Source of the DNA: an uncultured Candidatus Saccharibacteria bacterium | GTDB taxonomy: Bacteria; Patescibacteriota; Minisyncoccia; Phycocordibacterales; Phycocordibacteraceae | Assembly: GCA_964469405.1 (NCBI GenBank) | Contig: CAYXYP010000004.1 | Span: forward strand, 7,717 to 71,716 | Direction: 5' to 3' | DNA: 64,000 nt | In this document: positions 3,242-42,522 of the stretch, piece after piece | Layout: the number at the start of each line of letters is the position of its first letter | How positions within the stretch are numbered: position 1 is the stretch's first letter | Notes under the pieces: generated by a model | The model's input: the letters and a program-made list of their open reading frames with translations, nothing else | Database searches by the model: none | Told to the model about the DNA's origin: nothing | Program-made: the position numbers and the translations under genes

Positions 3242-4549
3242 CTATTGCGTTTTCAGTTGAAGTTTTTTGTATAGATACGCACGCACTTTGTACCACCAGT
3301 CGGGGTTAATCGGTTTAAGGTGCACATCCTGTCTAACGATAGTGGTTGTTGCGTTTTCAGGCATGTGAAGCGTTACAGGATCATAGCCGTCTGCCTGCAC
3401 CGTTACTTCTTTATATTGTCTCGGTACGAATATTTGGTAGGTTCCATCCGACACAGTCGCATAATTGGTACCATTCACATTCACCCTCACTCCGCCCATG
3501 CTCTCGCCGAGAGAGTCATAGATTACTCCTTGTAGGTTGAATGCTTTGAAATAATTTTGCACGGTGAAATACGCCGCACGCGGCGTGCCGTCGTCGTTTA
3601 GAAGTGCTGTCGATCCTCCGCTGAGGGTCCAGTAATTCACGACAGGAATATGTGCGCGCTCCAGATACATTGCTTTGAAAAGAGAGTCAATATAATTTGC
3701 TTGTTCGGTTTGCGTCATCCATCCGTTCAAGTCGGGGATCGGTGCGCCAAATTCACCGAGTCCCACATTGGCTTTCAATTGCTCGGGGATGGCTTTGATA
3801 TCGCCTGCAAATTGTTCCGGCGTGTGCACGTAATGATCGATAAGAATTGTCCCGCCAAAAGCTCGAACAGTTGCTGGAGTAATAATTTGTCGAGCAATAT
3901 CGGCGTTCATAGAGGGGTATACGGCGACATGTTTGTCTTGTAGCGCAAATTCGTTGTCGGCAATTGTTTTTTCATCTCTAAGAAATGCATTGTACCCAGC
4001 TACATCACCCGTCTGGCGTGGATCACCTGGTCCGCCATTTTCGCACTCTGGACAAGGGCTAAAAACGTCTCCATTCTGAAAGAGTTCGGTATTATCATCT
4101 AAAAAGATTACTAGTAACTGCGTATGTGCAGTACGGTCAACTTTGGGATAATTAAACCACCCCTCCCATCCCGAGAAATTACCTCTGAACCACACTGAGA
4201 GGTGGTGTGATCGAGCGGATGCGACCCATAGTCTTAGGACGGGAAGAAACTCAGTGTCATAGGGGGTAGCAATCGCTACGTGCGTGGCACCCGCATCTGC
4301 GATACGGGCCATTTGCTTGTCTACCATTGGTTTGAATGCATTTGGATTATTGAGCATTTGTCTCGACATGTCGCGCGAGGATTTCATCGTGTCGATGGAC
4401 TGCACGCTAAAAAGATTTCCGGTAGTGGTTGGGGCGAAATAATATAAAGTGTTTCCGTGATAGGACAGGAGGAACATATATAATGCGAAAACGATTACCG
4501 AGGAAGATACGGCAAGTGTGATGAATGTGCGGAATAAAAATTTGCGCAT
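3242..4549 (-). CDS. membrane-anchored/secreted protein, possible glycoside-hydrolase-like TIM-barrel domain plus C-terminal beta-sandwich; last gene of the glycan operon
   Basis: It has an N-terminal TM helix (LAVSSSVIVFALYMFLL) and a 435-aa extracytoplasmic body. It sits at the 3' end of the minus-strand glycosyltransferase operon. The hydrolase assignment is by weak resemblance only. Confidence 0.4.
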   Translation of the reverse strand: MRKFLFRTFITLAVSSSVIVFALYMFLLSYHGNTLYYFAPTTTGNLFSVQSIDTMKSSRDMSRQMLNNPNAFKPMVDKQMARIADAGATHVAIATPYDTEFLPVLRLWVASARSHHLSVWFRGNFSGWEGWFNYPKVDRTAHTQLLVIFLDDNTELFQNGDVFSPCPECENGGPGDPRQTGDVAGYNAFLRDEKTIADNEFALQDKHVAVYPSMNADIARQIITPATVRAFGGTILIDHYVHTPEQFAGDIKAIPEQLKANVGLGEFGAPIPDLNGWMTQTEQANYIDSLFKAMYLERAHIPVVNYWTLSGGSTALLNDDGTPRAAYFTVQNYFKAFNLQGVIYDSLGESMGGVRVNVNGTNYATVSDGTYQIFVPRQYKEVTVQADGYDPVTLHMPENATTTIVRQDVHLKPINPDWWYKVRAYLYKKLQLKTQ

Positions 4550-4552
4550 TGT

Positions 4553-6235
4553 CTAATTCGATGCGGGTACATCATTCCTTTCGAATATAAGGACTTCATT
4601 TGAAGTATATGCTTTATTGAAATATTTATATAGTCGCGCATTGATTTTTGGGTTATCGTTTATGCTCGTCCATACGGTGTCGTTTTTCTGCATGACTATC
4701 CAGCGCGCGTATTTCTCGGGTGTGATGAGCGATTCTTCCCAGTATGGCTTGTTACCGATGTAGATAATGTCCTTCATTTTGATGGGCGAACGAATGATGC
4801 TGATTGTTCGCGCAAAATCATCTGTTAATACCATGCCGCGATCGTAGTGAGATTCAAGCCAGAGTTGTGCATCAGGTATTTTTGCTGTTGCAGATGATAG
4901 GCCTGCAATACCATCTTGCAAGGCAAGCACCGGGGTGAATCCGATGAAGAAGAAAATGCACTGCAACGCGAGCAATCCCCCGATGAGTGTACGACCAAAA
5001 GTCCCACTACGAGAAAACAGATATCCTATGAAGAGCGCAATAACGGGCACCATCATAGCGCCGTAGCGCACATTGAAAAGTGTCCATTCAAAAGTAATCG
5101 GCGTGATGCCTGGTAGGAATATGACCGACTGGCCTAGGAATAAGGTGAGGACATTAAAAAATAATGGGACGAGAAGTACCAATAATATGAGCCATCGGTA
5201 GCGCATTTTTCTACTGAATCCAAACATAAATAGCCCCACAAGTGCGATGCACGCTAGGAGTGTTCCAACGCTCTGCATACTCGTGACCGTGTAATAAAGC
5301 AGCGCTACAAGGATATTGTGGTATGCGGGCAGCTCGCCTCTAACGAGCCAACTATTTTGTTGCGAGCTGGCTGAGAATTGACTGTGAGTGAAATAGAGTG
5401 GATCGCCGAGAATGAGAGCTCCCCATGAGAGCCAGAGGAAAATGCCAAAGAACGCTAATGTTATGAACAATATTTCGCGCCCCTCGAGTCGGTGCCATAG
5501 TTCCAAGAGCGTGCGCTTGCTCTTATGTATGAAGAGAGGCACTCGCTTACTCTGCAATCGAAACCAGGTGAGATTAAATCTCAAAGGAAAATAGTAGAGA
5601 AAGAGCACTCCTGCTTCCATCATCACGAGCGCCCAGCCGTCGTAGCGTGAGAGGGAAGCGCAGAATCCAAATCCTGCCGCTGCGATAAGCATGAGCAGTT
5701 TCGTATCATCGAGGAGAAACCGTATGAAGAAATAGCTTGAGAGAATGAAGAAGACGACCAGTGGGAGCTCGGTCATCGGTGTTGATTGTAGATAGAGGAT
5801 GTTGGGATTCGACATGAACACTATCGCTGCAAAAAAGGCTGCGCTCTTATTTCTGGTGAGAAGGTGAACGAGTTTGTATATATAAAGACTCGAAATAACA
5901 AAAGCAATGCCAGATATGATTGATCCCGCGAGTCCAGTACGCCAAAGGAAATCAAAGTATACGAATGGTATGAGCAATACGTGCGGCAAGGGCAACCAAA
6001 TACCGCCAAGCTGGGCAAAGCCAGGGGTGAGACTGTCTACGACGCGCTTGGCGATGTTGAGGTGCGACTCTGCATCCCCGTAGGCAGCGATGTATCCGTG
6101 AGTAAACGAATATGCCGTCGCGAGTATCGCGACGAATACGGCGAGTATAACGACCCACCACTCGGGAGTGAGCCATATACTCGGACGAAGTATCCATTCA
6201 AAATATTTCTTTCTGATGACAAAGGTGCTATTCAT
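4553..6235 (-). CDS. GT-C superfamily membrane glycosyltransferase (ArnT/PMT-like, polyprenyl-phosphate-sugar dependent)
   Basis: The 560-aa ORF has about 11 TM helices followed by a soluble C-terminal domain. The architecture is typical of GT39/GT83-like enzymes. It overlaps the upstream gene by 8 nt. Confidence 0.6.
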   Translation of the reverse strand: MNSTFVIRKKYFEWILRPSIWLTPEWWVVILAVFVAILATAYSFTHGYIAAYGDAESHLNIAKRVVDSLTPGFAQLGGIWLPLPHVLLIPFVYFDFLWRTGLAGSIISGIAFVISSLYIYKLVHLLTRNKSAAFFAAIVFMSNPNILYLQSTPMTELPLVVFFILSSYFFIRFLLDDTKLLMLIAAAGFGFCASLSRYDGWALVMMEAGVLFLYYFPLRFNLTWFRLQSKRVPLFIHKSKRTLLELWHRLEGREILFITLAFFGIFLWLSWGALILGDPLYFTHSQFSASSQQNSWLVRGELPAYHNILVALLYYTVTSMQSVGTLLACIALVGLFMFGFSRKMRYRWLILLVLLVPLFFNVLTLFLGQSVIFLPGITPITFEWTLFNVRYGAMMVPVIALFIGYLFSRSGTFGRTLIGGLLALQCIFFFIGFTPVLALQDGIAGLSSATAKIPDAQLWLESHYDRGMVLTDDFARTISIIRSPIKMKDIIYIGNKPYWEESLITPEKYARWIVMQKNDTVWTSINDNPKINARLYKYFNKAYTSNEVLIFERNDVPASN

Positions 6236-9200
6236 GGCGACGAATGTATGACAAGAGGAGTACGATTGCTGCGATAACTGCTATCACCACATATATGATG
6301 AGGAAATATTCCATCAAGGTGAGATGGATATACATATACGTCTTGTACACAAAGCTGCCACTTATATTGTCTTGCAGGAGTGGAATATCTTTCAAATAAT
6401 TGTATGTCTTTATTGGAAGTAATATTGCCTCAGATTTTTTTGGAATAGCATTTGATGTTAATGCTCCAAGAAGTGCTATGGCTGATGAGAAGAGGAACAG
6501 TGCGAATGCGGCGATTTTTTTTGGACCAAGAAATCGCCCATAGGAAAGTGCTATACCCACAAAAAGCGCGAGCCATGGCATTGCGGGGATGAGGTATCGC
6601 GGACCATACGCTGACCCTCCCCACGGATCACCCCATGCGCAGTACAGAAATATATTCGTCGCAATGAGAGCAATTGGTACGATATATATAGTACGATAGG
6701 TCTTCTTCCTGCGGAGAACATACATGATGCCAAGGAGCGAAAAAATAAATATCGGCGAGAAAAAGAATAGACCCCGCTCGTCAGAAAATAAGAGGACATA
6801 AAAACTGTTTGGTATGGATTTCTCATGGAAAAATCCAACAGCAGTTTTATCTTTTATTGGGACAGTGCTTGTGGCTGTTGCCGAAGTTGTAGTCGAGGAC
6901 GCCTTCGCAATTGCTGGCGTACTTGTCGCAGTGACAACTTTGTATCCTTTTAACTCTCCTGCAAGATGGCTCCATCCGCCGTAGTACGTGGCATTGTGCC
7001 AGAAATGTAGGCTGGTAACGAAAGCGAATACCACAAATGTCGCAATCGCACTCCATTGTATCGATATCGCAATACCCTCACGAATTTTTTTGAACGAGAA
7101 TGTCGAGACCGCGAGATAGATCATGACCGGTAGCATAAGTACGGCATTTGGGTAGTCGACGAAGATTGCAAGCGCATACGCGAGCCACACATACGCCGCA
7201 TAGAGGAATCTATATCGAGCGTCGCTTTGTGAGAAGCGCCATGCTGCATAAAATGCGGTGACGATAAAACATGCCGTAAAAGCGTTTTGATAGAGAGTGA
7301 TGGCATAGCTCCATGAGGTTGATCCAAATGCGTAGACAAGGACGGCGAATAATGCAGCCCATCGCGGTAATGCGAAGATACGTAGCCCGATGAGATATAT
7401 GAAAACGAGCGTAACGATGCTTATGAGGGATTCTGCAGAAAAGGTAGCAACTTGTCCGAGTCCATATTGCGCACCAAAAAGATAGAAGGGAAGAGTAAAA
7501 TACGAAACACCCGGGGCGAAATAGCTGTCTAATTTTCCATCAGACGACACGCCAACATCAGGATAGGCGATATCAGCCCATGTTTTCGAGAGATTATAGA
7601 CTCCATTCTCAGCCATGTTTGCGACTTGGGTATAGCGGCCACGCTCAGGGGACAATTCAAAAGCGTTTGTTGGTTGGTCTAAATTATTCTTGAATTGATC
7701 TTCGGTTGGATTTCCTGGTGCGCCACGCAACGTCAGTCCGTACATGACGAGACCAAGCATGACGATTGCTATGATGATGGCCGTATCTTTCTTTATAGTT
7801 ATTTTGCTCAGCCAGCTACTTTTTTTGGGAGTTTCTTTCCGCGGCGAGTAATACACTTCTGGTACTAAGGGAATATTCCCATCGGGAAACATCATTTTGG
7901 TCTGACTTGTGTATTCTTTGATCATCCCGAGTTTCATCTCCGGCTCTTCCTCGAAACGAAATACTTCAGTCGCGAGAGGATTGTCATCTTTCGAACCTAG
8001 AACGTTCTTCATATTGTAAGGGAAATCCTTCCACAGAATTACATTTTCGAAATTTTTGAGGCATACATCGCGGACGATCACGTGATCAATGTGTGATTTC
8101 AGAGCGAGCGGGCAGAAAATGACGAATTGTTTCTCATTCGCAATGAGCGCCCTTAATTCTTCCCCGAGGGAACGCATAAGATCTGTGTCGTGGGATGAAA
8201 TTGCTCCGCGGGCGATGTGTAATTGGTGTATCGGATACAAGTGCAAAAATTCCGGAAGAATACGGGAGAGTAGTTGGCGGAACTTACTCGGAGACGTTAT
8301 TTTTCTCCATGAAGCATCGATATATCCAAGATGGTGTGGAGTAATCCCGATACGTGAGTATGCTTTGCGGTCCTCTTCTTTTCGATCAATAAGGAGTTGA
8401 TTAGTATCCGTATACCCACACCGGTACAAGAATCGTAGGACGGAAAGCGTGTATGGTGGCGTCGACGCAGCGGTAAAAACGCTTATAACTTCGACTTGCG
8501 TATGCTTCGACAGGTGCGTAATTAAACCACCCGCCGATAGAGCAGCATCATCCAAGTGTGGAGAAATAAAATAGCACGGGATTTTCCCCGTAATTATTTT
8601 CTGCAAAAAATGAGTGTCGCCCATACTCGCCCGTATTTTTTTAGAGCTTTCTGCCATCTCCCACAATGAAGTAAACTTGTCGGTTTTGTGCAAGCGAACA
8701 TATAACAATATCAGAATAAAATTTATGGAAAAAATAGGGTGCGTGAAAAATTCTTTTACCATTTCCCTGAGTATGAGTCCGGGTGGAATAGCATATGCTT
8801 TTCTGGCCTCATCGCCAAATATATCAATCACAGCCTCTTTGCCTGCAGCAAAACGAGAACTCTGTTTTATATGGTCGCGGAGATTTGTTGGGCAACGAAA
8901 TATCGCTCGAGGATATTTTACGGAAACAAAATGCATTTTGTTTCCCATACAAAACATATACGACATAGCATCATACGGAGTATTGTCTGGGTACTGAATC
9001 GTTGCATATAATTTCTTTGAGAATGCCTGAGCAGGACCGAAACAAGTGTAAAGATTGTTCCCACTTCCTATCGATAAAAATAATTTCTGTTTCAATTCAT
9101 GATTCCAGACAAGAACCTTTTCAGTAAATGTTTTTGGGTTTGAAGGAAGAAGTGCCGCGCTCGTTAGTCCGACGGAGGAGTCATTAATAATTGGGCGTAT

Positions 9201-9533
9201 CAGTTCCTCTACAAAAAACTCATTTTCAGGCAAAATATCCGCATCGAGCATTACCATGATGTCGACTGTGGCATGTCGCAATAGCATATTTTTAGCTCGA
9301 ATGGCTCCGCCTCTTGTCTCAGAGCGGATAAGTTTTACTTTTTCTCCTGCGAACGAACGAACGATAGCGTCTGTCTCATCCGTACTGGCGTCGGATACGA
9401 CCACTATTTCAACTAGGTCTGCAGTATCGATCTTCTGACGAAGGAGTTCAGTCAGAAGCACCCCGATATTTTCGGCTTCATTATATGCAGCTATGGTAAT
9501 AGTGAGTGTAGGTTTCATATTTTTGGCATACAA
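6228..9533 (-). CDS. tri-domain fusion: GT2 glycosyltransferase + LmbE/PIG-L family N-deacetylase + multi-TM GT-C-like glycosyltransferase
   Basis: The N-terminus reads TITIAAYNEAENIG...VVVSDASTDETD...LDAD, a GT-A/GT2 DxD fold. The middle section has ISPHLDDAALSAGGLI, the PIG-L/LmbE HxDD zinc-deacetylase signature. The C-terminal ~550 aa carries about 13 TM helices of PMT/ArnT-like type. Confidence 0.7.
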   Translation of the reverse strand: MYAKNMKPTLTITIAAYNEAENIGVLLTELLRQKIDTADLVEIVVVSDASTDETDAIVRSFAGEKVKLIRSETRGGAIRAKNMLLRHATVDIMVMLDADILPENEFFVEELIRPIINDSSVGLTSAALLPSNPKTFTEKVLVWNHELKQKLFLSIGSGNNLYTCFGPAQAFSKKLYATIQYPDNTPYDAMSYMFCMGNKMHFVSVKYPRAIFRCPTNLRDHIKQSSRFAAGKEAVIDIFGDEARKAYAIPPGLILREMVKEFFTHPIFSINFILILLYVRLHKTDKFTSLWEMAESSKKIRASMGDTHFLQKIITGKIPCYFISPHLDDAALSAGGLITHLSKHTQVEVISVFTAASTPPYTLSVLRFLYRCGYTDTNQLLIDRKEEDRKAYSRIGITPHHLGYIDASWRKITSPSKFRQLLSRILPEFLHLYPIHQLHIARGAISSHDTDLMRSLGEELRALIANEKQFVIFCPLALKSHIDHVIVRDVCLKNFENVILWKDFPYNMKNVLGSKDDNPLATEVFRFEEEPEMKLGMIKEYTSQTKMMFPDGNIPLVPEVYYSPRKETPKKSSWLSKITIKKDTAIIIAIVMLGLVMYGLTLRGAPGNPTEDQFKNNLDQPTNAFELSPERGRYTQVANMAENGVYNLSKTWADIAYPDVGVSSDGKLDSYFAPGVSYFTLPFYLFGAQYGLGQVATFSAESLISIVTLVFIYLIGLRIFALPRWAALFAVLVYAFGSTSWSYAITLYQNAFTACFIVTAFYAAWRFSQSDARYRFLYAAYVWLAYALAIFVDYPNAVLMLPVMIYLAVSTFSFKKIREGIAISIQWSAIATFVVFAFVTSLHFWHNATYYGGWSHLAGELKGYKVVTATSTPAIAKASSTTTSATATSTVPIKDKTAVGFFHEKSIPNSFYVLLFSDERGLFFFSPIFIFSLLGIMYVLRRKKTYRTIYIVPIALIATNIFLYCAWGDPWGGSAYGPRYLIPAMPWLALFVGIALSYGRFLGPKKIAAFALFLFSSAIALLGALTSNAIPKKSEAILLPIKTYNYLKDIPLLQDNISGSFVYKTYMYIHLTLMEYFLIIYVVIAVIAAIVLLLSYIRRHE

Positions 9534-10717
9534 TCTCTATATACGGTATCCATTTTCCGGGCGACATCTTTCCATGATTGTCCTTTGCCAAAAATGGCGT
9601 TCGCCTCTTTTATTTTCTGTACGCTTGTTGCATTGCTCGGATCAAGAAGCCACAAAACTTTTTCGGCAACTTTTTTATCATCGTGTACCGGAAGACAAAA
9701 ACCATTCACGCCGTCTTTGATAAGTCCAGGGAGGCCATACACATCGGATACAACACAGGGAATCCCTTGGCTCATTCCTTCGCGTACGACATTGCAACCA
9801 CTCTCCCATAATGCCATGTGTACCATGGCAACGGCATGTCGCATGAGATAATATTTATCAATTCCGCGGACGACACCAGTGAATACAATACGCTTTCCAA
9901 GCCGAAGCTCTGCTATAAGGTTTTTCAGTTTTTGTTCATATGTCGCATCTTGCAATTGACCAATGACCACAAACTTCATGTTCTCCGGTAGATGCGCGAG
10001 TGCTCGAATCGTTGTTTCGATATTTTTGATCGGGTACACTCGTGCGACTTGAATGATATATCTGCCGTACGTTGCAACCGCTTTTTTAACATCTGCGCTC
10101 GCTAAAGCGTCAATATCTCCATACGCTTCATCTTCGAGCCCGTTGTCTATCAAGTGAACCTTTTCGGGCCTAATATATTTCACTTCTTCCGTTCGTTCCC
10201 ACTCCGATACTGCGCGCACGCCATCAACGGTGGCGTTTATAAGCCATGCACCAAGTGTGTGAGTGTATATCTTTTTTACGAAACGACTTACGGGAGGGAA
10301 CATTGACCATTCGGGACTAAAACCACCATGCGGGGTGAGTATAAGCGCAAATTCTTTCTTCCCAATTATTTTAAATAAAAGCGCATAAAAGAGATACCGC
10401 ACAAAGAATATGTCAAAATTATGAAGTGCGATGACATCAGTCTCTCCCCAATGTAGTTCAGGAGAAAATCCGAATACGCCACTCTCGTATCTTTTTACGC
10501 GGAGGCCATTCATGATCTCTTCTGCTACGAGTATATTTTTCTCAGTGTATGTATCTCTGAGTGTATGTATGGTTACATCCCAGCCGAGCGTATTCTGCAA
10601 GGCGACATACGTCTGCATAATGTTATTCTCGATACCTCCTGCAACGGGGTAGAAATACTTCGTGATAACGTCCACGTGTTTTTTTGGCACATTTACGAGA
10701 GTAGTCATGGCTGTCAT
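9515..10717 (-). CDS. GT4 (GT-B, group 1) glycosyltransferase
   Basis: The C-terminal EGMSQGIPCVVSDVYGLPGLIKDGVNGF matches the EX7E-type GT4 donor-binding motif. The ORF is 400 aa. It overlaps both neighbours by 19 nt and 4 nt. Confidence 0.8.
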   Translation of the reverse strand: MTAMTTLVNVPKKHVDVITKYFYPVAGGIENNIMQTYVALQNTLGWDVTIHTLRDTYTEKNILVAEEIMNGLRVKRYESGVFGFSPELHWGETDVIALHNFDIFFVRYLFYALLFKIIGKKEFALILTPHGGFSPEWSMFPPVSRFVKKIYTHTLGAWLINATVDGVRAVSEWERTEEVKYIRPEKVHLIDNGLEDEAYGDIDALASADVKKAVATYGRYIIQVARVYPIKNIETTIRALAHLPENMKFVVIGQLQDATYEQKLKNLIAELRLGKRIVFTGVVRGIDKYYLMRHAVAMVHMALWESGCNVVREGMSQGIPCVVSDVYGLPGLIKDGVNGFCLPVHDDKKVAEKVLWLLDPSNATSVQKIKEANAIFGKGQSWKDVARKMDTVYRDCMPKI

Positions 10718-12450
10718 TTTATTATTACAGCAGTTGAAATCACCGCATATCGCGGATCATTAAACAAAAGATCCTCATCGGCGAGCTCTTCTTTTGCGAG
10801 CCCAACCCAAAACGCTTGTCCAGAAAGGACATTCCCATACGAAGAAACAAGTATATGTTCCGGTGAGACACATTTCCCAAAAAGATATTTGAGCGAGGTG
10901 GGAGTATATCTCCAATAGCATCGTTCCGGATTTTGCATTACTCCCATAGACGAGACGGTGACGAGAAGCACACCTCCTGGTTTCAATATGCGAACAGCTT
11001 CCCGCGCCGCAGACTCGTGATCGTCAATGACCCCGAGCGTGTGCGTAAGAATGATGCAGTCGTAGGTATTTTCCGGAATATGACTCATATTTCTCAAATC
11101 ACCATACAAATTCGCCCTCTTATTTTTTATATCTACATCAAGCACATCACTTTTTGTCACTTTGGCACCACCGAAACGGGCGGTGTAGTCGTTAGTACAT
11201 ATTTCAAGACAGTAACCACGTATATATGCCGCATTAGTTTCTAAAAATAACTCGATGTAGTGACGATCAATCGGAGTGCCTCGGTCAAAACCAAATTTTT
11301 TGCTTATTGGGAAAAGGGAGTATTTTGATTTTGGTCGAAAAAAACGCATGAAAAGAGTACGAATTCTCCCAAGAAGAGAGACGAACATGTCTATAATGGT
11401 CGACCTTGGATAGACCGATTGGCTTCGCAAGGCATCTCCCGATAAATCATGAGATATATCACTCCACTCATATACAACAGCATTAAAGCATCGAAAGTTT
11501 AATTTGAGGCGTTCTTCACTCTCTGTATCGTGGAGTAATTGGACGGCGGATATTGCAAAAAGCGCACGAAATATTTTTGCAGTTTCTTGCGATTTGCCAT
11601 ATAGCGATGCGACACCATTTAGAACGACCTTTCGAGATTCATCGTTATCCCACTCCCAATGCAATGAGTTGGTAAATATTTGGAGCAAACTTGTAAAAGC
11701 ATTATCGCCAAAATCAATGATAACAACCCCTTCTTTGTTTACGAGGACATTCTCAAAATGAAAATCTCGATGAACTAACCCTTCATGCCAATGTGAGGCA
11801 AGAGGTGGAACTGCTTGCAGAACCATCGGTATTGTTCGTATGAGAGTCGGTATTTCTCGAGGATATCGGATAGCGGCGTATACAAGACTGACACCATAAG
11901 CAAATAGCGTGTCGGATAGTGTACGTCTGGGAATCTGGCTTTTTTCAGAGGCGTTGAATTGGTCACCAATATATTTCCAAAAATCAATTGCGAGATTAAA
12001 GGTTTCGTATTTTTTTGAAAATGGAGTGACATCTTTTAAATGTATACAATTTTCTATATACTCAAAGACCGCCAGAATATGCGTAGGAGATATTTCCTTT
12101 TCTAAAAGGCGAGGGATGCATATGTGCCGGTATTTCTCTTCAAGTGAGGACCCAATGCGATCCAGCACCCCATGGAGAAGCATGTACAACCGAATCTCGT
12201 TCATGAGTTGGTAGTATTCGTATGTTTGAACTGGCCCCCTCCATATTTTGATAAGAACTTTGTGTCCCTGATTATTTTCGTATACACCAATACCGCGCGG
12301 AGAACTTACGAGAACGGTGTGCAATCGAAAGCCATTGTATTCCGCAGGAAGTGATGTGTCAGAGTCAATTCGCTTGAACAAGCTTACTACGCTAGTTTTT
12401 AATACTAGAGATATGTGCCAGAAAATGTTTGTTTGCTTTATAATAGTCAT
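10714..12450 (-). CDS. fusion of a protein-kinase-like/aminoglycoside-phosphotransferase-like kinase domain and a class I SAM-dependent methyltransferase
   Basis: HRDFHFENVLVNKEGVVIIDFGD gives an HRD catalytic loop plus a DFG motif. The C-terminal DCIILTHTLGVIDD...ILKPGGVLLVTVSS is a Methyltransf_11-type fold. Confidence 0.65.
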   Translation of the reverse strand: MTIIKQTNIFWHISLVLKTSVVSLFKRIDSDTSLPAEYNGFRLHTVLVSSPRGIGVYENNQGHKVLIKIWRGPVQTYEYYQLMNEIRLYMLLHGVLDRIGSSLEEKYRHICIPRLLEKEISPTHILAVFEYIENCIHLKDVTPFSKKYETFNLAIDFWKYIGDQFNASEKSQIPRRTLSDTLFAYGVSLVYAAIRYPREIPTLIRTIPMVLQAVPPLASHWHEGLVHRDFHFENVLVNKEGVVIIDFGDNAFTSLLQIFTNSLHWEWDNDESRKVVLNGVASLYGKSQETAKIFRALFAISAVQLLHDTESEERLKLNFRCFNAVVYEWSDISHDLSGDALRSQSVYPRSTIIDMFVSLLGRIRTLFMRFFRPKSKYSLFPISKKFGFDRGTPIDRHYIELFLETNAAYIRGYCLEICTNDYTARFGGAKVTKSDVLDVDIKNKRANLYGDLRNMSHIPENTYDCIILTHTLGVIDDHESAAREAVRILKPGGVLLVTVSSMGVMQNPERCYWRYTPTSLKYLFGKCVSPEHILVSSYGNVLSGQAFWVGLAKEELADEDLLFNDPRYAVISTAVIIK

Positions 12451-12453
12451 ATT

Positions 12454-15400
12454 TTATGTTCGATTTACCAAAGAAGCTTCGTGGTGGGATATAAATTCCC
12501 GACTGGAAATTGCCTCAATAAATTTTTGACTGCTCTTGCTCCACTCAAAATTCTGTGACCATACAATCGCGTATCTTGAGAGAATCTTCCGGAGTGTCCC
12601 ATCAACGAGCACTAGAATTATCTTTTCTGCGAGAGCTCCAGTATCACCATACGGGACCAGGAGTCCCGTCTCGCCATCGCGTACAGAATCGCGAAGGCCG
12701 GAGACATCTGACGCAATGACGGGCGTACCGCAGGCATTCGCTTCAATCGTAGTTATTCCCCAGCCCTCAATCATAGATGGAGTGACAAAAACCCAGGATG
12801 TTCGCAAAATATCACGCTTCTCTTCCTCGGATACCTTTCCACGAAAAGAAACTGAATTTCCGAGGTCGAGTTTCTGCGTCAATCTCTTCAAATTATTTTC
12901 TTCCTCACCATCCCCAGCAATAATAAGCTCTGCATCGGGAACACGAGCCAGAACTTCTTTGAATGCCTCGATGAGCACATGGACAGACTTGTGTTCTTTC
13001 AGTCTTCCAACATAGGACACTGTTGGCACGAATGCTTTCTTTCCAGGAGTTAGGAAATTTGTATCAATGCCCGGATTTACCACCTGAATATCTTTGGTCG
13101 TTATGTTGAGCGTCTCCATAGCCTGTTTTGAAGAATCTGACACCGTAATGAAGTTGCAGTTGCGATACACAAGCGGCATAAAATCTCTTTCGAGGAAGCA
13201 AGCAAAACTGGAAAGTGGCCACACGAGCGATTTGCGGAATACGTCTTGATGAATGTGGTGTACCAGGCAATACACGGGTTCTGTAGCATACAGCGGAGTA
13301 AAGAAGGGGATACCATTTTCACTATCTACGATAACGTCGAATGTCCCTCTGAAATGAAATAGATAATAGAGCGAGGCGATGACATAGGTCGCATAGAATC
13401 CACCACGGCGTATGATGCGGACACCATCAGTCTCTCCGTTTGGGGGTAAATGACCGTCATTACTTGTGAACAGGGTCACGGAGTGACCATCCTTTACCCA
13501 CCGTGATGCAAGAGCTTGCACGTATGTCTCGGCGCCGCCGGCAAACACACTTTTGGTATCGCGCCAATTGAAGACAAGAATATTTTTTTTGCCCGGAATA
13601 TGAGGGCGTGCGGGAGGCAATGGTTTATAGATAATAAGGATGTCATAGAGGTTACGATAGGCGTAGAGAAGCTGGTTGTAGAAAATATGTGAAGCCGCAA
13701 TAATTAGGAAATATATGATATTAAACGCTACTGCCGTCTGCACAAATACCGCTACGGAAGAATGGTAGAACACCATACTTGTAAGCATGGAGAGAGATAA
13801 CACTAAAGATATGGCGGGGAAAAAATATCGTTCCCGCGCAAGCTGGTAGAGAACGACGGTTGTTGCAAGCGTGAATAATGTCATGGCGATAGAGTAGGGA
13901 ATGAGATACGGGACAATCATCAGCGCCGATGCGCCAAGAAGAAGCGGTGCAAGAAACCACCCGAACAAAGAGAGGCCGAGCCCTGCCGAAATGCTGAGGA
14001 ATGCCGTACCGACAAAAATCTTCCCAAATTCTTTCTCCGGATCTCTGCCTTTTCCCATCGCACGACTCACCATTGACACGATAAATACATTGAGAAGAGA
14101 ACCGAAAAAATAAATCATTTTCCCGATGGTGGAGAGGAGAGCATAGACGCCGGCGTCATAGGGACTTAAATAATGTTTCGCCAGAATTACGTCGACGCTC
14201 AGAACCATCGCAATCGAAAATCCCTTCATGAGTGATGCTGCATAAAAATCAAGCGAAAATTTCGTTTCCGTCTGGGCCGTTCTTTGGGCAGCTGGAATTT
14301 TTCGGTACACGAGGGCGGCGCAAGCGGTTGAACCAGCCCAACCAAGAAAGATAGAAATAGGTATGGCAAGTGAAGAGAATTCGTATGCACTCATGGAGAC
14401 GAGAATCATGGCTGCGGCGAGTCTCGAACTGGATTCAAAAAGGGCTAGAAACGCAAGCATGCCGAAGCTCCACATGCCTTGCAAGTACCCGGCGTTATAC
14501 GCATTAAGCGATCCGAAGAAAATCGCTGGAGCGAAGGCTGCTATTACCACGTATCCTGACATGTGGAAGAAATCGGAGATAAACGGGACGGAAGCAAACC
14601 ACACGATGCTCCCAATCATGCTCGGAATAAAAATGTGTAGCCATGTGTGACGGAAAAAGAGACTTCCTTTTCCGGGAGCGATTCCTTCAAGATACGAAAC
14701 GGTGTGGTTGAGTGTGGTGCCGACACCGTTAACAAAAAGATTGAGCAGATACACAAACGTGCTTACGAGCGTGATAGTGCCGAAGTCTTCGAAATTAAGA
14801 TGTCTGCCGAGATACGCATTGAATGCAAAGTTGATGATGTTTGCGACTACCGAAGACATCACCAGGAGTCCTGCGCTTGAAGTGATGAATTTTCGTGTCT
14901 TTACGAACCATGTTTCTTTTTCGGTATTGTCACTCAGAATATGGATCAGCTCTGGTTCGTTGTCGGGTACAGCATTTGCCGCCATATCGATGGATGCCGG
15001 TAACGCGGGATTCTTTACGGGTATGAGTGTCAAGACGGTCCGTGGAGGCTGTTTCGCCATGACGGCTTTCATATCGAAAGCGATTTGCGGTACTGGGACG
15101 CGCATCGTCCATGGTATTTGCGGGATAATTTTCACCGGGGCGAGGTGAAGCCCATGAACTGTCTTCGCCCAGTAGTGTGGCTTCACAATTATTTCGTACA
15201 GCGCTTGCCATGCGGCGAAACTCATACCGAGCCAATAGAACGGGATGAGGAAAACGTATTTGATGAGTCCGTCGTATTCGCGCTTCACACAACCGATCAT
15301 GTAGTAGTAGAGATAGAGGAAGTTTCCAAATACAAGCGAAAAGACTCCGATATAGAGTATCGGTCCCGGGAAGAAGGCCTCTATAAAGAGGCCGATCTTT

Positions 15401-16662
15401 GCGCGGAAAAGAAAGTAACAAATCGTCGTCACCCACATGATGGGATTGATGAAAAGCGAAAGTATCTTTCCGCCAACGATGAGCTGGAAAAGAAAAAAAT
15501 CTTTTCCTTTCCCCGCTGTGAAATACTCCTGCGGATTACGCATGTGCACGAAATAGGTCTGGATGTAGCCTTTGATCCACCTGCTGCGCTGGTTGTACCA
15601 ATTCAGGACGTCCGAGTTGGCCTCCTCGTGTGTGGTCGAATCGACGATTGCCGTTTTGTAACCGCGCTTGGCGAGGCGCATACCGAGGTCACAATCCTCG
15701 GTGACGTTAAACGCATCCCAGCCCCCGAGCTCACGGAGCGTGTCTCTGCGGAAATGGTTGGAAGTTCCGCCAAGCGGAATAGGCGCCCCGATTGATTGAA
15801 AGCCGGGGAGAACCAAGTCGAACCAGAGTGAATATTCCGCGCTAAAGAGTCTCGTGAGAATGTTCTGTTGCGGATTATAGAAATTGAGTTTGGCTTGGAT
15901 GCAGGCCACGCTCGCATCTACTTTTTTGAATGCGAGAACCGCCTTCTTAAGTTGGTCGACTTCGGGGACATCCTCGGCGTCGTATATAACGACATACTCG
16001 CCGCTCACATAATTAAGGCCGTAGTTCATCGCCTTCGGCTTGGTCTTCGGCTTTGAGTGCGGCACGACCACGATGTGGAAGTGCTCGGGCAGGGAGGACG
16101 TGCTTATTTTCTGTATGGTTTCCGTATCGTTCTCCTCGAGAAGAAAAAGGACCTGAAGTTTCTCGTGCGGGTAATCAAGTTTCTGCATCGCTTCGACGAA
16201 CTGAGGTACCACCTGCCATTCTTTATAGAGCGGACAGAAGATCGTGTAGGTCGGGCAGTTCTCGTCGCGGAGTCCCGCTATCTCTGATGCGCTGATGCGT
16301 ATTTCGGGGAGCGCTTTGTAGCTTTGGAAAATAATGAACGCACTAAATAGAAGATCGAAAAAATAGAGCACGGTCATCACGCCGAACAGCGCGATGGCGG
16401 TCATCTGCCAATTGAGAACAAATGCAAATGCAAGGAGTCCGATAGCTGTTCCTAAAAATATTTTCTGATGTCTAAGTAAATTGAAAAACGCTGATTCTGT
16501 CACATGCAAATCTGCATGATGAATGAATTCGGCACCCTTGTAATGGAAGCCCGTCTGCATCGTGTTAGACATAATGGGCGACATGTGTGGATCATGCTCC
16601 GGCCCGAAGATGAAACCACGCACTTTCCGGGACAGGTTCGTGTACGCATCAACGTATCTCAT
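12454..16662 (-). CDS. 1402-aa tri-module protein: processive GT2 synthase (cellulose/chitin/PNAG-synthase-like, QxxRW) + about 12-TM Wzx/MOP-flippase-like module + C-terminal GT4 glycosyltransferase
   Basis: The N-terminal domain has DAEDVPE, TEDCDLGMRL and QRSRWIKG (D, D, D, QxxRW) flanked by TM helices. The central ~450 aa is highly hydrophobic and polysaccharide-biosynthesis/flippase-like. The C-terminus reads EGWGITTIEANACGTPVIASDVSGLRDSVRDGETGLLV, a GT4 signature. Confidence 0.75.
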   Translation of the reverse strand: MRYVDAYTNLSRKVRGFIFGPEHDPHMSPIMSNTMQTGFHYKGAEFIHHADLHVTESAFFNLLRHQKIFLGTAIGLLAFAFVLNWQMTAIALFGVMTVLYFFDLLFSAFIIFQSYKALPEIRISASEIAGLRDENCPTYTIFCPLYKEWQVVPQFVEAMQKLDYPHEKLQVLFLLEENDTETIQKISTSSLPEHFHIVVVPHSKPKTKPKAMNYGLNYVSGEYVVIYDAEDVPEVDQLKKAVLAFKKVDASVACIQAKLNFYNPQQNILTRLFSAEYSLWFDLVLPGFQSIGAPIPLGGTSNHFRRDTLRELGGWDAFNVTEDCDLGMRLAKRGYKTAIVDSTTHEEANSDVLNWYNQRSRWIKGYIQTYFVHMRNPQEYFTAGKGKDFFLFQLIVGGKILSLFINPIMWVTTICYFLFRAKIGLFIEAFFPGPILYIGVFSLVFGNFLYLYYYMIGCVKREYDGLIKYVFLIPFYWLGMSFAAWQALYEIIVKPHYWAKTVHGLHLAPVKIIPQIPWTMRVPVPQIAFDMKAVMAKQPPRTVLTLIPVKNPALPASIDMAANAVPDNEPELIHILSDNTEKETWFVKTRKFITSSAGLLVMSSVVANIINFAFNAYLGRHLNFEDFGTITLVSTFVYLLNLFVNGVGTTLNHTVSYLEGIAPGKGSLFFRHTWLHIFIPSMIGSIVWFASVPFISDFFHMSGYVVIAAFAPAIFFGSLNAYNAGYLQGMWSFGMLAFLALFESSSRLAAAMILVSMSAYEFSSLAIPISIFLGWAGSTACAALVYRKIPAAQRTAQTETKFSLDFYAASLMKGFSIAMVLSVDVILAKHYLSPYDAGVYALLSTIGKMIYFFGSLLNVFIVSMVSRAMGKGRDPEKEFGKIFVGTAFLSISAGLGLSLFGWFLAPLLLGASALMIVPYLIPYSIAMTLFTLATTVVLYQLARERYFFPAISLVLSLSMLTSMVFYHSSVAVFVQTAVAFNIIYFLIIAASHIFYNQLLYAYRNLYDILIIYKPLPPARPHIPGKKNILVFNWRDTKSVFAGGAETYVQALASRWVKDGHSVTLFTSNDGHLPPNGETDGVRIIRRGGFYATYVIASLYYLFHFRGTFDVIVDSENGIPFFTPLYATEPVYCLVHHIHQDVFRKSLVWPLSSFACFLERDFMPLVYRNCNFITVSDSSKQAMETLNITTKDIQVVNPGIDTNFLTPGKKAFVPTVSYVGRLKEHKSVHVLIEAFKEVLARVPDAELIIAGDGEEENNLKRLTQKLDLGNSVSFRGKVSEEEKRDILRTSWVFVTPSMIEGWGITTIEANACGTPVIASDVSGLRDSVRDGETGLLVPYGDTGALAEKIILVLVDGTLRKILSRYAIVWSQNFEWSKSSQKFIEAISSREFISHHEASLVNRT

Positions 16663-17395
16663 TTTGTGCGGTAGGAAGAGCGCTATAGCGTCCCAGAATG
16701 CGGTTCCACGATATGTGTGCGAGCTCGCCGAGCGTTTGGAAATAAGAAACAGCGGTAACTTTGGATCCGGCGGGATTGTCCCATACGACGGGAAGTTCCT
16801 TTATCTTGAAGTCATTTTTGCGAGCGATGACTAAAACCTCGATATCAAATCCAAAACGCTCGATAGTCTGTCGCGGGAAAATCGCGTCGGCCGCCTTTGC
16901 GGAAAATAGTTTGAATCCGCGCTGAGTGTCTTCAATTCCCGGCACCGCTAAGAGCTGTACGAGCATGTTTGCACCTGAACCGAGTATTCTGCGGTGCCAG
17001 CCATTATGCTCGGATACGTCGGTGGTATCAGTGATGTGTATAGAACCGATAGCAACGTCGAACCCATTTGAGAGAGAGCGCATGAACATATCGAGGTGTG
17101 AGATATCTACTGAGTTGTCAGCGTCCATAAACAGTCGATAGTCGCCCGTCGCGGCGAGCATTCCGCGCTTGACGGAGAAACCCTTTCCGCTATTTTTTTC
17201 ATTTATTAGAACCTGCAGGTTTTTTATTCTTGACGCATAGCGTCCGGCCACAAAGGCGGTGCCGTCAGTCGAGCCATCGTCGACCACGATCACTTCGACG
17301 GGCATGTCATTATGGGCGAAATATCGTTCGATGCTCTCGAGTGTATTCCCGATACGCGTCGCTTCGTTGTAAGCCGGTATGACTATGGAAAGCAT
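16649..17395 (-). CDS. GT2 polyprenyl-phosphate glycosyltransferase (Dpm1/GtrB-like)
   Basis: MLSIVIPAYNEATRIGNTL...VIVVDDGSTDGT...DADNS is present. I place the start at the ATG at the complement of 17393-17395, just after the GtrA stop. The ORF track extends it to 17455. Confidence 0.75.
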   Translation of the reverse strand: MLSIVIPAYNEATRIGNTLESIERYFAHNDMPVEVIVVDDGSTDGTAFVAGRYASRIKNLQVLINEKNSGKGFSVKRGMLAATGDYRLFMDADNSVDISHLDMFMRSLSNGFDVAIGSIHITDTTDVSEHNGWHRRILGSGANMLVQLLAVPGIEDTQRGFKLFSAKAADAIFPRQTIERFGFDIEVLVIARKNDFKIKELPVVWDNPAGSKVTAVSYFQTLGELAHISWNRILGRYSALPTAQNEIR

Positions 17396-17399
17396 ATTT

Positions 17400-17813
17400 T
17401 TATCCATGAGATTTTTTGAACACCAGGAATCGATAGCCGAGGAAGTTCCATCCAAGCACGACGAAGGTGCCCATCAATGCTCCAATGTTTGCCGCAAGTT
17501 GCGGGGAAGCCTGCTGCACGAAGAGGGTGAAGACGGCAAACGAAATTGATACGTTTATCCAGAAGCCTACCGCGGATATGATGAAGAAAAGTAGTGGCTC
17601 TTTCACGTTTGTCGGCGTGTCGTGCCTAAAGACCCACCATTTATTCAATATGTAGCTATTGGCGACAGCCGCGAGGAAAGAGATGCTCTTGAATACGACG
17701 AAAAGTTCACCATGGACACCGGTACCAAAAAAGTATATTAAAATGTTGAGCACCATTAAATCGAGTGCTGTGTTAAGCACTCCGACACAGAAGAATTTAA
17801 AAAATGTATACAT
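17400..17813 (-). CDS. GtrA-family small membrane protein (polyprenyl-P-sugar translocation partner of GtrB-like GT2)
   Basis: The 137-aa ORF has 4 TM helices. FFKFFCVGVLNTALDLMVLNILIYF is GtrA-like. It is the first gene of the operon. Confidence 0.7.
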   Translation of the reverse strand: MYTFFKFFCVGVLNTALDLMVLNILIYFFGTGVHGELFVVFKSISFLAAVANSYILNKWWVFRHDTPTNVKEPLLFFIISAVGFWINVSISFAVFTLFVQQASPQLAANIGALMGTFVVLGWNFLGYRFLVFKKSHG

Positions 17814-21497: not shown

Positions 21498-22436
21498 ATG
21501 GAATATTTGCCTGAATTTAAAAAGAACTTTGCAACCGCGTATCTCGCGGAGGAGTATGAACGTCTCGATAAAGAGGCTGCTGAGGCACTTGGAGCCGCAG
21601 GAGGGGATGCCGAGCTTATGCGAATGGCGAAGGAAGACGAGTCGCGCGTCCGCGCGCGACAGGCGGGCATTCTCACCGAAATAGAGCAAATCCTTGCGAA
21701 AGAAAAAGAAGAAGTCGCTCGACCGAGTTCGGTCGTGATGGAGCTACGCGCTGCTGCGGGTGGGGACGAAGCGACCATCTTCGCCACCGATCTAAAAGAA
21801 ATGTATCAAAAATATGCTGAACGTCGTGGATGGAAGACGCGCGTTGTCGATGATCTCACTATTGAGATCATAGGTGCTGATGCGTACGATGCTCTGCGCT
21901 TCGAAACTGGCGTACATCGAGTCCAGAGGGTGCCACTCACTGAGAAGTCGGGGCGTATTCATACCTCCACCGCCTCAATAGCTGTATTGCCTATCCGCTT
22001 AAAATCGAAGGTAGATATCAATCCAGCCGATATCCAGATGGAATTTTCGAGAAGTGGCGGAGCAGGAGGACAGAATGTGAACAAGGTCGAGACGGCTGTT
22101 CGGCTCGTCCATATACCTACCGGAATTGATGTACGCTCTTCTTCCGAGAGAAGTCAGTTGGCGAATCGCGAAAAGGCGATGCAAATTCTATCCGCGAAGC
22201 TTGAACAATTGCATGAAGAACAGGAAGCGAAGAAACATGCGGCAGAGCGTAAAGAACAGATAGGTACGGGCGATCGTTCGGAAAAGATTCGCACGTATAA
22301 CTACCTGCAAGATCGTGTTACCGACCATCGGCTGAAGGAATCCTGGCACAATCTGCCGAAGATCCTCGCGGGAGGCATAGATGACATTATCGATGCATTA
22401 CACGCGGCAACCACCTCGCCAACCCATTCCGGCTAA
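21498..22436 (+). CDS. prfA: peptide chain release factor 1
   Basis: It has the GGQ motif [11 protein letters not shown]. The codon-recognition tripeptide is PLT ([14 protein letters not shown]), which is the RF1 P-x-T type. The ORF is 312 aa. Confidence 0.85.
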
Positions 22437-42422: not shown

Positions 42423-42507
42423 CTCCTGTCTGATTGTGGGGTACGTGAACGTTCTTCTATACCTACAATACAAATTATTTGATATATGTCAAGTACCGGA
42501 TAAAATC

Positions 42508-42516
42508 TGGTACAAT
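42508..42516 (+). promoter_or_regulatory. extended -10 element (TGgTACAAT) placed so that transcription would start at or next to the prfB ATG (possible leaderless mRNA)
   Basis: tggtacaat ends 6 nt before the ATG at 42523-42525. No Shine-Dalgarno sequence lies between them. Confidence 0.35.
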
Positions 42517-42522
42517 TCTTCG

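Follow-up and report, generated by a model that had tools for sequence, protein, structure and literature searches.

A synthase-type GT2, a Wzx-like flippase module and a GT4 fused in one chain at the core of a conserved Patescibacteria operon for a putative envelope glycan

Domain architecture of the 1402-residue protein

The window analysed here is a stretch of 64,000 nucleotides (nt) from contig CAYXYP010000004.1 (assembly GCA_964469405.1) of an uncultured Candidatus Saccharibacteria bacterium from groundwater, with a G+C content of 47%. One of its open reading frames (ORFs) encodes a single chain of 1402 amino acids (aa) in which a synthase-type family 2 glycosyltransferase (hereafter GT2b), a variable linker, a Wzx/PST-like module of the MOP superfamily (hereafter MOP) and a family 4 glycosyltransferase (GT4) follow one another. 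A soluble GT2 (hereafter GT2a) is encoded just upstream and is part of the same chain in many relatives, which makes the functional unit one of four domains, not three. This arrangement is best explained by placing the protein at the centre of a conserved operon of Patescibacteria that would build a cell-envelope glycan. The features of the protein are as follows.

12454..16662, minus strand: whole ORF, GT2b-linker-MOP-GT4, 1402 aa, single ATG start
16312..16473, minus strand: possible N-terminal transmembrane (TM) hairpin of GT2b, aa 64-117 (hydropathy: stretches 66-86 and 88-112)
15544..16254, minus strand: GT-A catalytic domain of GT2b, aa 137-373 (D179, DAED 228-231, TED 321-323, QRSRW 358-362)
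15184..15507, minus strand: two TM helices (386-418, 433-460) and amphipathic helix 464-493, similar to interface helix 3 (IF3) of synthases, aa 386-493 (AlphaFold2 (AF2) model, hydropathy, hydrophobic moment, conservation)
15151..15180, minus strand: gating-loop-like motif PHYWAKTVHG, aa 495-504 (conservation, place after the IF3-like helix)
14893..15150, minus strand: cytoplasmic linker joining GT2b to MOP, aa 505-590 (variable, rich in Pro and in K/R; the gene is split here in some relatives)
13633..14892, minus strand: MOP-superfamily Wzx/PST-like module, aa 591-1010 (12 TM helices and a short C-terminal amphipathic helix)
12493..13584, minus strand: GT4 (GT-B fold, retaining), aa 1027-1390 (Pfam, EX7E motif)

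The ORF occupies exactly the positions given in the initial annotation, which was silent on the strand. A search of 5.8 billion proteins returned 2615 matches at E ≤ 1e-5, of which the best 120 were analysed. An identical 1402-aa protein was found on 17 contigs of separate assemblies, including the ENA records Hain_H41/H51_02um and a Logan assembly; the continuous frame is therefore not an assembly artefact. A frameshift or misassembly joining three or four genes is also countered by the fusion in the 120 best homologs listed and in 50 of 80 related loci, and although split versions are present in some genomes, this explanation is so improbable that it was ruled out.

The assignment of GT2b as a GT2 rests on Pfam matches over aa 137-418 (PF13632, 96 bits; PF13641, 82 bits), both above the curated cut-offs. 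In an alignment of the target with its 120 homologs (121 sequences), D179, D228/E230/D231, T321-E322-D323 and Q358-R359-x-R361-W362 are kept in at least 97% of sequences, and the GT2b model places QRSRW on an interface helix (352-373). Apart from D179, these residues lie within the three motifs on which the initial annotation had based a processive synthase, DAEDVPE (aa 228-234), TEDCDLG (321-327) and QRSRWIKG (358-365), all of them found in the translation. The GT2 call is correct; processivity does not follow, as QxxRW and the D,D,D motifs alone are no proof of it.

The catalytic domain is flanked by membrane segments on both sides. AF2 draws aa 64-117 as one long helix, and this segment is taken to be a TM hairpin on grounds of parity, because in the four-domain relatives the cytoplasmic GT2a comes before it and the cytoplasmic GT2b catalytic domain after it. 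On the C-terminal side, the two TM helices and the IF3-like helix carry a set of conserved polar and aromatic residues (K399, N406, W410, T413, Y416, N447, Y452, Y454, Y476 and W477). Directly after helix 464-493, W498-x-K500-T501-x-H503-G504 is kept in at least 97% of the 121 sequences. In known synthases the gating loop follows IF3 and reads FxVTxK in cellulose synthases and WGTR/KG in hyaluronan synthases (HAS) and chitin synthases (CHS) (PMC10592267). The aromatic-x-x-T-x-basic pattern of aa 495-504 and its place after IF3 fit such a loop, and the sequence alignments to BcsA stop before this region; position and pattern, rather than a structural alignment, suggest that this motif is gating-loop-like.

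In BcsA, CesA and HAS, TM helices come after the gating loop (PMC10592267). GT2b differs in this respect: hydropathy and the AF2 model show no hydrophobic segment between aa 504 and the first MOP helix at about residue 596, and the GT2b ORFs of split relatives stop at the same point after the gating-loop-like motif. GT2b has in total four predicted TM helices plus interface helices and, lacking TM helices after the gating-like loop, may not form a complete channel alone.

By sequence, the closest solved relatives of GT2b are cellulose synthases. The single sequence scores 60.8 bits against E. coli BcsA and the family profile 74.7 bits, in an alignment that spans DxD, TED, QxxRW and the first TM helix beyond and brings the GT2b motifs onto the same motifs of E. 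coli BcsA. The structural match values run in the following order, and Foldseek ranks the families in the same way.

BcsA: 30.4 (389 residues aligned)
PcManGT: 28.3
Chlorella virus HAS: 25.2
Xenopus HAS1: 23.0
CesA1: 21.5
CslF6: 19.8
Cyclic beta-1,2-glucan synthase: 19.3
Soluble GT-A enzymes: 18.8 or less

GT2b thus has the overall fold of processive GT2 synthases, a catalytic domain packed on an amphipathic interface and TM helices. Against the NCBIfam equivalogs it scores 95.2 bits for CelA (cut-off 699.1), 68.5 for PRK11498 (992) and 62.4 for PgaC_IcaA (422.3), and it is above the curated cut-off of none of the CelA/BcsA, PgaC/IcaA and NodC equivalogs. The PgaC_IcaA model ends at about residue 512 of the target. 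GT2b also exceeds the cut-off of the Pfam GT21 (ceramide glucosyltransferase) family (PF13506, 28.9 bits vs 21.7), and a Pfam scan of the 1402-aa protein found no PilZ domain.

The linker that follows has the lowest conservation of the protein, with about 50% gaps in the family alignment; the ORF boundaries of split forms fall within it, and its equivalents (aa 508-577) vary from about 9 to about 100 residues among homologs.

The central module of the target has no Pfam or NCBIfam match even at E ≤ 10, and its profile has no match among PDB sequences. When 27 orthologous central modules were scanned singly, 12 matched PF01943 (Polysacc_synt, the Wzx family; best E 3.6e-10), two matched PF13440 (8.3e-13) and three matched MatE, while none of the 27 matched the PelG or MurJ Pfam families. 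The AF2 model (mc6ac617822d9) has 12 TM helices, with a pLDDT of 86.7 and a pTM of 0.85. Among PDB structures, Foldseek ranks the lipid III flippase WzxE (9g95_A, E 8.6e-7, TM-scores 0.71/0.76) first, followed by MurJ and many MATE transporters, with a probability of 1.00 and TM-scores of 0.66-0.78 overall. The flippase-like central module proposed in the initial annotation is therefore confirmed. The alternative that this module is simply the C-terminal TM bundle of the synthase was ruled out: it also occurs as a stand-alone protein of about 420 aa and fused to other cytoplasmic enzymes, and MOP is for that reason a genuine separable domain.

The loops of MOP hold 17 lysines and arginines on the predicted cytoplasmic side and 0 on the predicted outside, from which an N-in/C-in topology follows. 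The linker (11 K/R within aa 494-590) and all three catalytic domains, GT4 among them, are accordingly cytoplasmic. With a cytoplasmic linker and MOP N-terminus, the GT2b helix 464-493 cannot cross the membrane.

The C-terminal GT4, already recognised in the initial annotation, matches PF13439 (55.3 bits) and PF00534 (151.4 bits) above the curated cut-offs at aa 1042-1366, and its EX7E motif (E1299...E1307) is kept in at least 97% of the 121 sequences. Only about 15-20 residues join it to the end of MOP, which places it at the membrane surface. Its best NCBIfam likenesses are MshA, EpsE, BshA, Agl16 and PglH/J, all far below the curated cut-offs, and its PelF score is 42.9 bits against a cut-off of 100. 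No module of the 1402-aa protein reaches the cut-off of any curated functional (NCBIfam) family.

Distribution and architectures of the family

The best 120 homologs all score above 1279 bits and are about 1000-1900 aa long (most 1300-1900). They keep the order GT2-MOP-GT4, the tri-domain order for which a homolog search had been proposed; two of them lack part of MOP and one is truncated at the N-terminus. The organisms named among them are nearly always Parcubacteria, Patescibacteria, Roizman-, Doudna-, Niyogi- or Falkowbacteria. One near-identical relative apart, identity to the target is 54-89% for GT2b, 49-91% for GT4 and 29-54% for MOP; low identity of this kind is typical of Wzx flippases. 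The architecture is unusual relative to textbook systems, as the initial annotation had stated, but it is not a singular oddity: it belongs to a widespread, conserved Patescibacteria family. The three domain calls likewise stand, and the count does not, since GT2a is a fourth domain, upstream here and fused in many relatives.

The MOP module has a wider distribution. Among 1.84 billion cluster representatives, its profile matched 8593 proteins at E ≤ 1e-3, of which 1314 reached E ≤ 1e-30. In the best 150 it occurs alone (about 420 aa), as MOP-GT4 (about 800-840 aa), with a soluble GT2 (about 730 aa) and in long fusions, as well as in the combinations MOP-GT4-GNAT, MOP-GT4-GT2 and MOP-APH-GrpB. 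In a scan of one genome per species, at least 526 genomes, mostly titled Patescibacteria, encode a MOP relative. Neighbourhoods were counted with 6-kb flanks at the best 80 loci from these at least 526 genomes, where the architectures are distributed as follows.

GT2a-GT2b-MOP-GT4: 23 of 80 loci
GT2b-MOP-GT4: 27 of 80 loci
MOP-GT4: 22 of 80 loci
MOP alone: 7 of 80 loci
GT2b-MOP, cut by a contig end: 1 of 80 loci

GT2b-MOP-GT4 is thus fused in 50 of the 80 loci, 23 of which have GT2a in the same chain. In 19 of the 25 complete split loci, the ORF immediately upstream, in the same orientation, encodes a GT2b orthologue (53-65% identical), and one further split locus has such an orthologue within 3 kb. 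Locus L004 is an example of the split form: its GT2a-GT2b gene (740 aa) and its MOP-GT4 gene (816 aa) share 4 nt. Overall, GT2b and MOP are fused or directly abutting in about 70 of the 80 loci, and fusion or adjacency of the four domains is a conserved property of the family.

Some metagenome-assembled genome records with the gene (L018, L019, L021-L025, L038, L047, L075 and others) are titled Gammaproteobacteria, Bdellovibrionales or Pseudomonadales, and other odd titles are Verrucomicrobiia, Bathyarchaeia and Fimivivens. One "Gammaproteobacteria"-titled contig with the gene is 954 kb, the size of a Candidate Phyla Radiation (CPR) genome. These titles are probably taxonomic mislabels or the result of binning contamination.

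Public records label the family proteins merely "glycosyltransferase" or "hypothetical protein". Every module belongs to a known superfamily; the combination of a synthase GT2, a Wzx-type flippase, a polyprenyl-phosphate sugar synthase and a GT4 is undescribed in the literature searched on CPR, Patescibacteria and Saccharibacteria. An Aravind "lipocone" paper met in that search is unrelated.

The surrounding operon

The gene lies within an operon on the minus strand, whose other members are listed in the order of transcription.

17400..17813, minus strand: GtrA-family small membrane protein, first gene of the operon (PF04138, 66 bits)
16649..17455, minus strand: GT2a, soluble GT2, 268-aa ORF (probable start M17; overlaps the target ATG by 14 nt)
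10714..12450, minus strand: kinase-like (APH/Pkinase) and SAM methyltransferase protein, 578 aa, directly downstream of the target (PF01636, PF08241)
9515..10717, minus strand: second GT4, 400 aa (PF00534, PF13439; relatives in 18 of 80 loci)
6228..9533, minus strand: GT2 (aa 1-300), PIG-L deacetylase (322-490) and polytopic domain (560-1101, "X515"), 1101 aa (Pfam)
4553..6235, minus strand: GT-C-type PMT_2/ArnT-like glycosyltransferase, 560 aa, polytopic (PF13231, 30.9 bits vs cut-off 26.1)
3242..4549, minus strand: membrane-anchored extracytoplasmic protein, 435 aa, C-terminal CarboxypepD_reg (Ig-like) domain (weak PF13620, one N-terminal TM helix)

Loci L002-L007 are syntenic with the operon of the window, in the order GtrA (closest relatives only), GT2a, GT2b-MOP-GT4, a variable set of GT4, GT2, kinase-methyltransferase and PIG-L genes, and genes of about 515, 555 and 430 aa. 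GT2a is free of TM and interface helices and shares 68-76% identity with the N-terminal ~245 residues of the longer homologs P0004-P0018. Its best PDB match is the Pyrococcus furiosus Dol-P-Man synthase 5mlz (58.5 bits, 6-227 vs 25-241, the whole catalytic domain); it also matches ArnC, and its full-length NCBIfam matches are a Dol-P hexose transferase, PpgS and AglJ, all below their cut-offs. GT2a therefore resembles Dol-P-Man synthase and, judged by these sequence matches, would belong to the class of polyprenyl-phosphate sugar synthases. The GtrA gene is found in 5 of the 80 related loci, all closest relatives, so it is not a core partner, and its role as an obligatory partner was ruled out.

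Two proteins of the operon are GT-C candidates. The 560-aa PMT_2/ArnT-like protein has nine hydrophobic segments, and a gene of similar size (about 555 aa) occupies the same position in L002, L003, L005, L006 and L007. The C-terminal domain of the 1101-aa protein also has nine hydrophobic segments; its weak NCBIfam match (28 bits) to the Leptospira LA_3751/LA_3752 putative glycosyltransferase family and an hhalign match to the PMT_2 neighbour family (probability 58%, E 1e-4) suggest that it is probably GT-C-like. Its GT2, PIG-L and polytopic (~515-aa) parts are separate genes in L006. The 1101-aa fusion reproduces the logic of ArnC, ArnD and ArnT in one chain, with only the flippase missing.

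Deacetylase genes are frequent near the family, with CE4 deacetylases in 22 and PIG-L in 13 of the 80 loci, and weakly hint at N-acetyl-hexosamine chemistry. The CE4 protein of about 270 aa (among loci L008-L087, e.g. L023 8107-8976, L076 5938-6777 and L049 4224-5048) begins with a conserved Arg-containing amphipathic helix (..RRxVY..) and has no clear signal peptide, and a CE4 domain is fused to the C-terminus of the family protein in P0023 and P0033. By analogy with NodB or ArnD, this protein may act at the cytoplasmic face.

The kinase-like domain of the 578-aa protein has counterparts in relatives P0041, P0166 and L006 (14625-17564), where an APH domain is joined to the family protein or encoded next to it. 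The protein as a whole recalls the chain terminator WbdD, a kinase/methyltransferase whose domain order differs. The 435-aa gene is the last conserved gene of the operon, its position being kept in L002, L003, L006 and L007 (about 430 aa), and by analogy with BcsZ, PgaB and PslG its product might be a glycan-processing hydrolase. Neither the 435-aa nor the 560-aa protein has a match among PDB sequences.

No match to Bac_transf, Glycos_transf_4 (MraY/WecA) or Wzy_C was found in the operon genes and about 20 other ORFs of the window; Wzy proteins are often undetectable by sequence. In these ORFs the set of a chain-length regulator, a phosphoglycosyl transferase (PGT) and Wzy that marks a Wzx/Wzy-dependent locus is missing, and a classical Wzx/Wzy pathway was rejected for the lack of PGT and Wzy.

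Comparison with known systems

GT2b shares with BcsA, CesA, HAS, chitin synthase and PgaC/IcaA the GT-A domain with D, DxD, TED and QxxRW and the order IF2, TM, TM, IF3 and gating-loop-like motif, and its overall size is that of PgaC/IcaA. It departs from these processive synthases in ending at the gating-loop-like motif, in lacking PilZ and any BcsB, PgaD or IcaD partner that could be found, and in having a MOP flippase and a GT4 behind it in the same chain and often another GT2 in front.

The MOP module is like the Wzx flippases, WzxE in particular, in its 12-TM N-in/C-in fold (TM-score to WzxE about 0.71-0.78) and in the match of its orthologs to Wzx Pfam families, and like GacK and WpsG in being encoded together with GT-C transferases and a lipid-phosphate sugar synthase of the GT-A type. 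Unlike Wzx flippases it is not free-standing but fused on both sides to glycosyltransferases, and the target sequence is too divergent for any Pfam or NCBIfam match.

The operon holds the roles known from GtrA/B/C, CsbB-GtcA-YfhO, GacIJKL, WpsA-J and ArnC-ArnD-ArnE/F-ArnT: a GT-A enzyme resembling Dol-P-Man synthase and ArnC, a PIG-L or CE4 deacetylase (cf. ArnD), a flippase (MOP, with GtrA in the closest relatives) and GT-C/PMT_2 transferases. It differs from these multicomponent transmembrane glycosylation systems in that the roles are fused into two giants, GT2a-GT2b-MOP-GT4 and GT2-PIG-L-GT-C. To our knowledge, no described system of this kind contains a synthase-type GT2.

In the Gac and Wps systems, the backbone has an export route of its own and is decorated by the components GacI/J-GacK(Wzx)-GacL and WpsA/B-WpsC-F-WpsG(Wzx)-WpsI/J (PMC9574508). 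The GT-A enzymes GacI and WpsA charge undecaprenyl phosphate, the cytoplasmic glycosyltransferases WpsC-F may extend the glycan linked to the lipid monophosphate, the Wzx-family proteins GacK and WpsG flip the lipid-linked glycan, and the GT-C enzymes GacL and WpsI/J transfer or polymerise it onto the backbone (PMC9574508). The MOP-GT4 half of the protein also recalls the Pel complex (PelD-E-F-G), in which a GT4 works with a 12-TM MOP/PST-type protein (PMC8461298); it differs from Pel in that the PelF and PelG models are unmatched, PelD and PelE are missing and there is an additional BcsA-like GT2.

Possible mechanisms

The dual-chain reading that we tentatively prefer, while holding it short of probable, is that a backbone synthase is co-assembled with a Wzx-type multicomponent transmembrane glycosylation system. 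GT2b, a membrane-embedded, BcsA/HAS-like inverting enzyme, would use a UDP-sugar on the cytoplasmic side to polymerise a beta-linked backbone, which it would pass outward; the frequent deacetylase neighbours prompt the guess that this is a polymer of the N-acetylglucosamine (GlcNAc) type. GT2a would charge polyprenyl phosphate with a first sugar, which the GT4 tethered to MOP, the extra glycosyltransferases of the operon and the deacetylase could extend or modify on the cytoplasmic side. MOP, to judge from its fold and the operon content, would then flip the polyprenyl-phosphate-linked sugar or short oligosaccharide (or, more generally, a polyprenyl-(di)phosphate-linked glycan) to the outer face, where the GT-C-type enzymes (the 560-aa PMT_2 protein and the polytopic C-terminal half of the 1101-aa fusion) would transfer it onto the backbone or another envelope acceptor. 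The logic would be that of Gram-positive rhamnose polysaccharides, with the synthase replacing the ABC-transporter route. The domain identities, the membrane topology and the conserved linkage of the domains are results of the analysis, whereas we infer the substrates, the order of the steps and the distinctness of backbone and flipped glycan.

This reading is preferred because the operon holds every role, a GT-A charger, cytoplasmic glycosyltransferases, a Wzx and GT-C enzymes, beside a synthase. The absence of PGT and Wzy_C matches in the ORFs scanned fits priming on polyprenyl monophosphate by GT2a. The occurrence of MOP alone or fused to varied cytoplasmic enzymes is what one would predict for a flippase that receives its substrate from the enzyme attached to it, and the variable, often split linker, together with a MOP subfamily that also exists without GT2b, argues for two cooperating but separate machines. 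Several points weigh on the other side. The backbone and the flipped glycan could be one and the same molecule, and the GT2b-MOP adjacency is tighter than mere co-localisation needs; GT2b stops right after its gating-loop-like motif, without the later TM helices of BcsA, CesA and HAS, and this feature and the tight adjacency keep directly coupled readings alive. GT2a, GT4 and MOP fall below every curated NCBIfam cut-off, so any substrate given for them is putative. The GT-C call for the C-terminal domain of the 1101-aa protein is weak, as its hhalign probability indicates, GtrA is not kept across the family, and with flanks of only 6 kb the frequency of GT-C partners (8 to 16 of 80 loci) is under-sampled.

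Among the alternatives, the one that would account for the four-domain fusion and its conserved order most economically is a single linear lipid-linked pathway in which all four domains act on the same molecule. GT2a would charge the lipid, GT2b, as a minimal fold without a channel, would add one or a few beta-sugars at the inner leaflet, GT4 would add an alpha-sugar, MOP would flip the finished oligosaccharide and the GT-C enzymes would polymerise or transfer it. The missing TM helices of GT2b agree with such a role, as does the lack of PGT and Wzy in the ORFs scanned, and the two GT-C-like proteins could serve as polymerase and transferase, like WpsI/WpsJ (PMC9574508). Yet the conserved residues K399, N406, W410, T413, Y416, N447, Y452 and Y454 form a stripe along the full length of the TM helices 386-418 and 433-460, an arrangement more suggestive of a path for sugars than of a plain anchor; by sequence and by fold, GT2b matches true polymer synthases best; and the MOP subfamily is also found without GT2b. 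We consider this pathway a possibility of the second rank, with the balance clearly tipped against it. A similarly low but appreciable chance attaches to the broader proposition that synthase and flippase act on the same product. GT2b would then have lost the TM helices after its gating loop, and its beta-chain, whether a free polymer or one extended on a polyprenyl-phosphate primer from GT2a, would leave by way of the fused MOP or next to it. A more specific form, a composite translocon in which a PgaC-size GT2b needs a membrane partner and MOP completes the path or is itself the conduit, is unlikely. In its favour, the next TM segment of the chain after IF3 and the gating-like motif is the first MOP helix, where BcsA and CesA have a TM helix of their own (PMC10592267); the PgaC_IcaA model ends near residue 512, and PgaC requires the small membrane protein PgaD for its activity (PMC8461298); at about 70 of the 80 loci GT2b and MOP share a chain or abut directly; and polymer export involving a MOP protein has a proposed parallel in the MOP-like PelG and its GT4 partner PelF (PMC8461298). 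The long and variable linker at which the gene is often split speaks against it, as do the conservation of MOP, much lower than that of GT2b and typical of Wzx flippases, the lack of any PelG or MurJ match among the 27 orthologous modules, and the fact that MOP transporters are only known to move lipid-linked units.

A pathway to a lipoglycan or glycolipid anchor, similar to that of phosphatidylinositol mannosides and lipomannan or of glycosylphosphatidylinositol (GPI), is slightly less likely again. Here GT2b, GT4 or both would glycosylate diacylglycerol, phosphatidylinositol or a similar lipid, PIG-L would deacetylate a GlcNAc-lipid, MOP would flip the glycolipid and the GT-C enzymes would extend it outside with polyprenyl-phosphate sugars made by GT2a. 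The GT21 match of GT2b points this way, and so does the likeness of GT4 to MshA and BshA, each of which is followed by a PIG-L-family deacetylase in its pathway, with PIG-A and PIG-L of GPI synthesis forming a similar pair; PIG-L, a Dol-P-Man-synthase-like GT2a and GT-C genes are all present in the operon. The GT21 score is, however, far below the synthase-type scores (PF13632, 96 bits; CelA, 95 bits), the gating-loop-like motif and the fold matches indicate polymer synthases, PIG-L is limited to 13 of the 80 loci, and no acyltransferase or lipid-specific domain was seen. Very improbable is a Pel-like arrangement in which MOP-GT4, as the equivalent of PelG-PelF, would need no lipid carrier to synthesise and export another polymer, alpha-linked, beside an independent GT2b. 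The Pel inner-membrane complex is built around a GT4 and a 12-TM MOP/PST protein (PMC8461298), and two-domain MOP-GT4 proteins are common in the family. The PelF score of GT4, though, is less than half its cut-off, the MOP modules match the Wzx-type PF01943 in 12 of 27 cases and the PelG family in none, and no PelD- or PelE-like genes were seen in the operon of the window or those of L002-L007; a PelF/PelG-type system was rejected because its family models are unmatched. The two possibilities raised in the initial annotation, a synthase primed by GT4 and a product handed over in cis, are both compatible with these data, and neither gives the best fit to the operon.

Patescibacteria (CPR) account for a large share of bacterial diversity, and very little is known of their cell envelope. 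The wide occurrence of the family (at least 526 species genomes with MOP) and the strong conservation of GT2b (54-89%) make a major envelope glycan of small, host-dependent cells its likely product, and the protein probably builds a major cell-surface glycan of Patescibacteria. Synthase-dependent and Wzx-dependent export are usually taught as alternatives, and the repeated joining of a BcsA-like synthase to a Wzx-like flippase is a natural "Rosetta stone" for the two export logics operating together, as well as a compact single-gene target for testing how they combine. As the fused form fixes the stoichiometry of the complex, it should suit structure determination. If synthase and flippase do act on the same product, the protein would represent an export route that merges the "synthase-dependent" and "Wzx-dependent" paradigms and is ancestral to a large part of Patescibacteria.

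Other genes of the window

Two genes for Ser/Thr- or Gly/Thr-rich proteins lie on the plus strand next to the operon. The first, at 18207-19559 beside the promoter region of the operon, encodes a probable surface protein of 450 aa, rich in Ser/Thr, which has a hydrophobic segment at the N-terminus and a TM anchor at the C-terminus and matches no Pfam family. The second, at 19556-21046 and divergent from the glycan operon, encodes a 496-aa Gly/Thr-rich protein (GGTITGGTVTGG...) with a hydrophobic N-terminal segment; the gene contains a perfect 360-bp tandem duplication at 20021-20736 (2.0 copies, 100% identity). This protein could be a substrate for O-glycosylation by the PMT_2-like enzyme, or the duplication could be recent or a feature of the assembly. 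Elsewhere in the window, two genes for class-I release factors, with PCRF and RF-1 domains, are located at 21498-22436 and 42343-43398, both on the plus strand.

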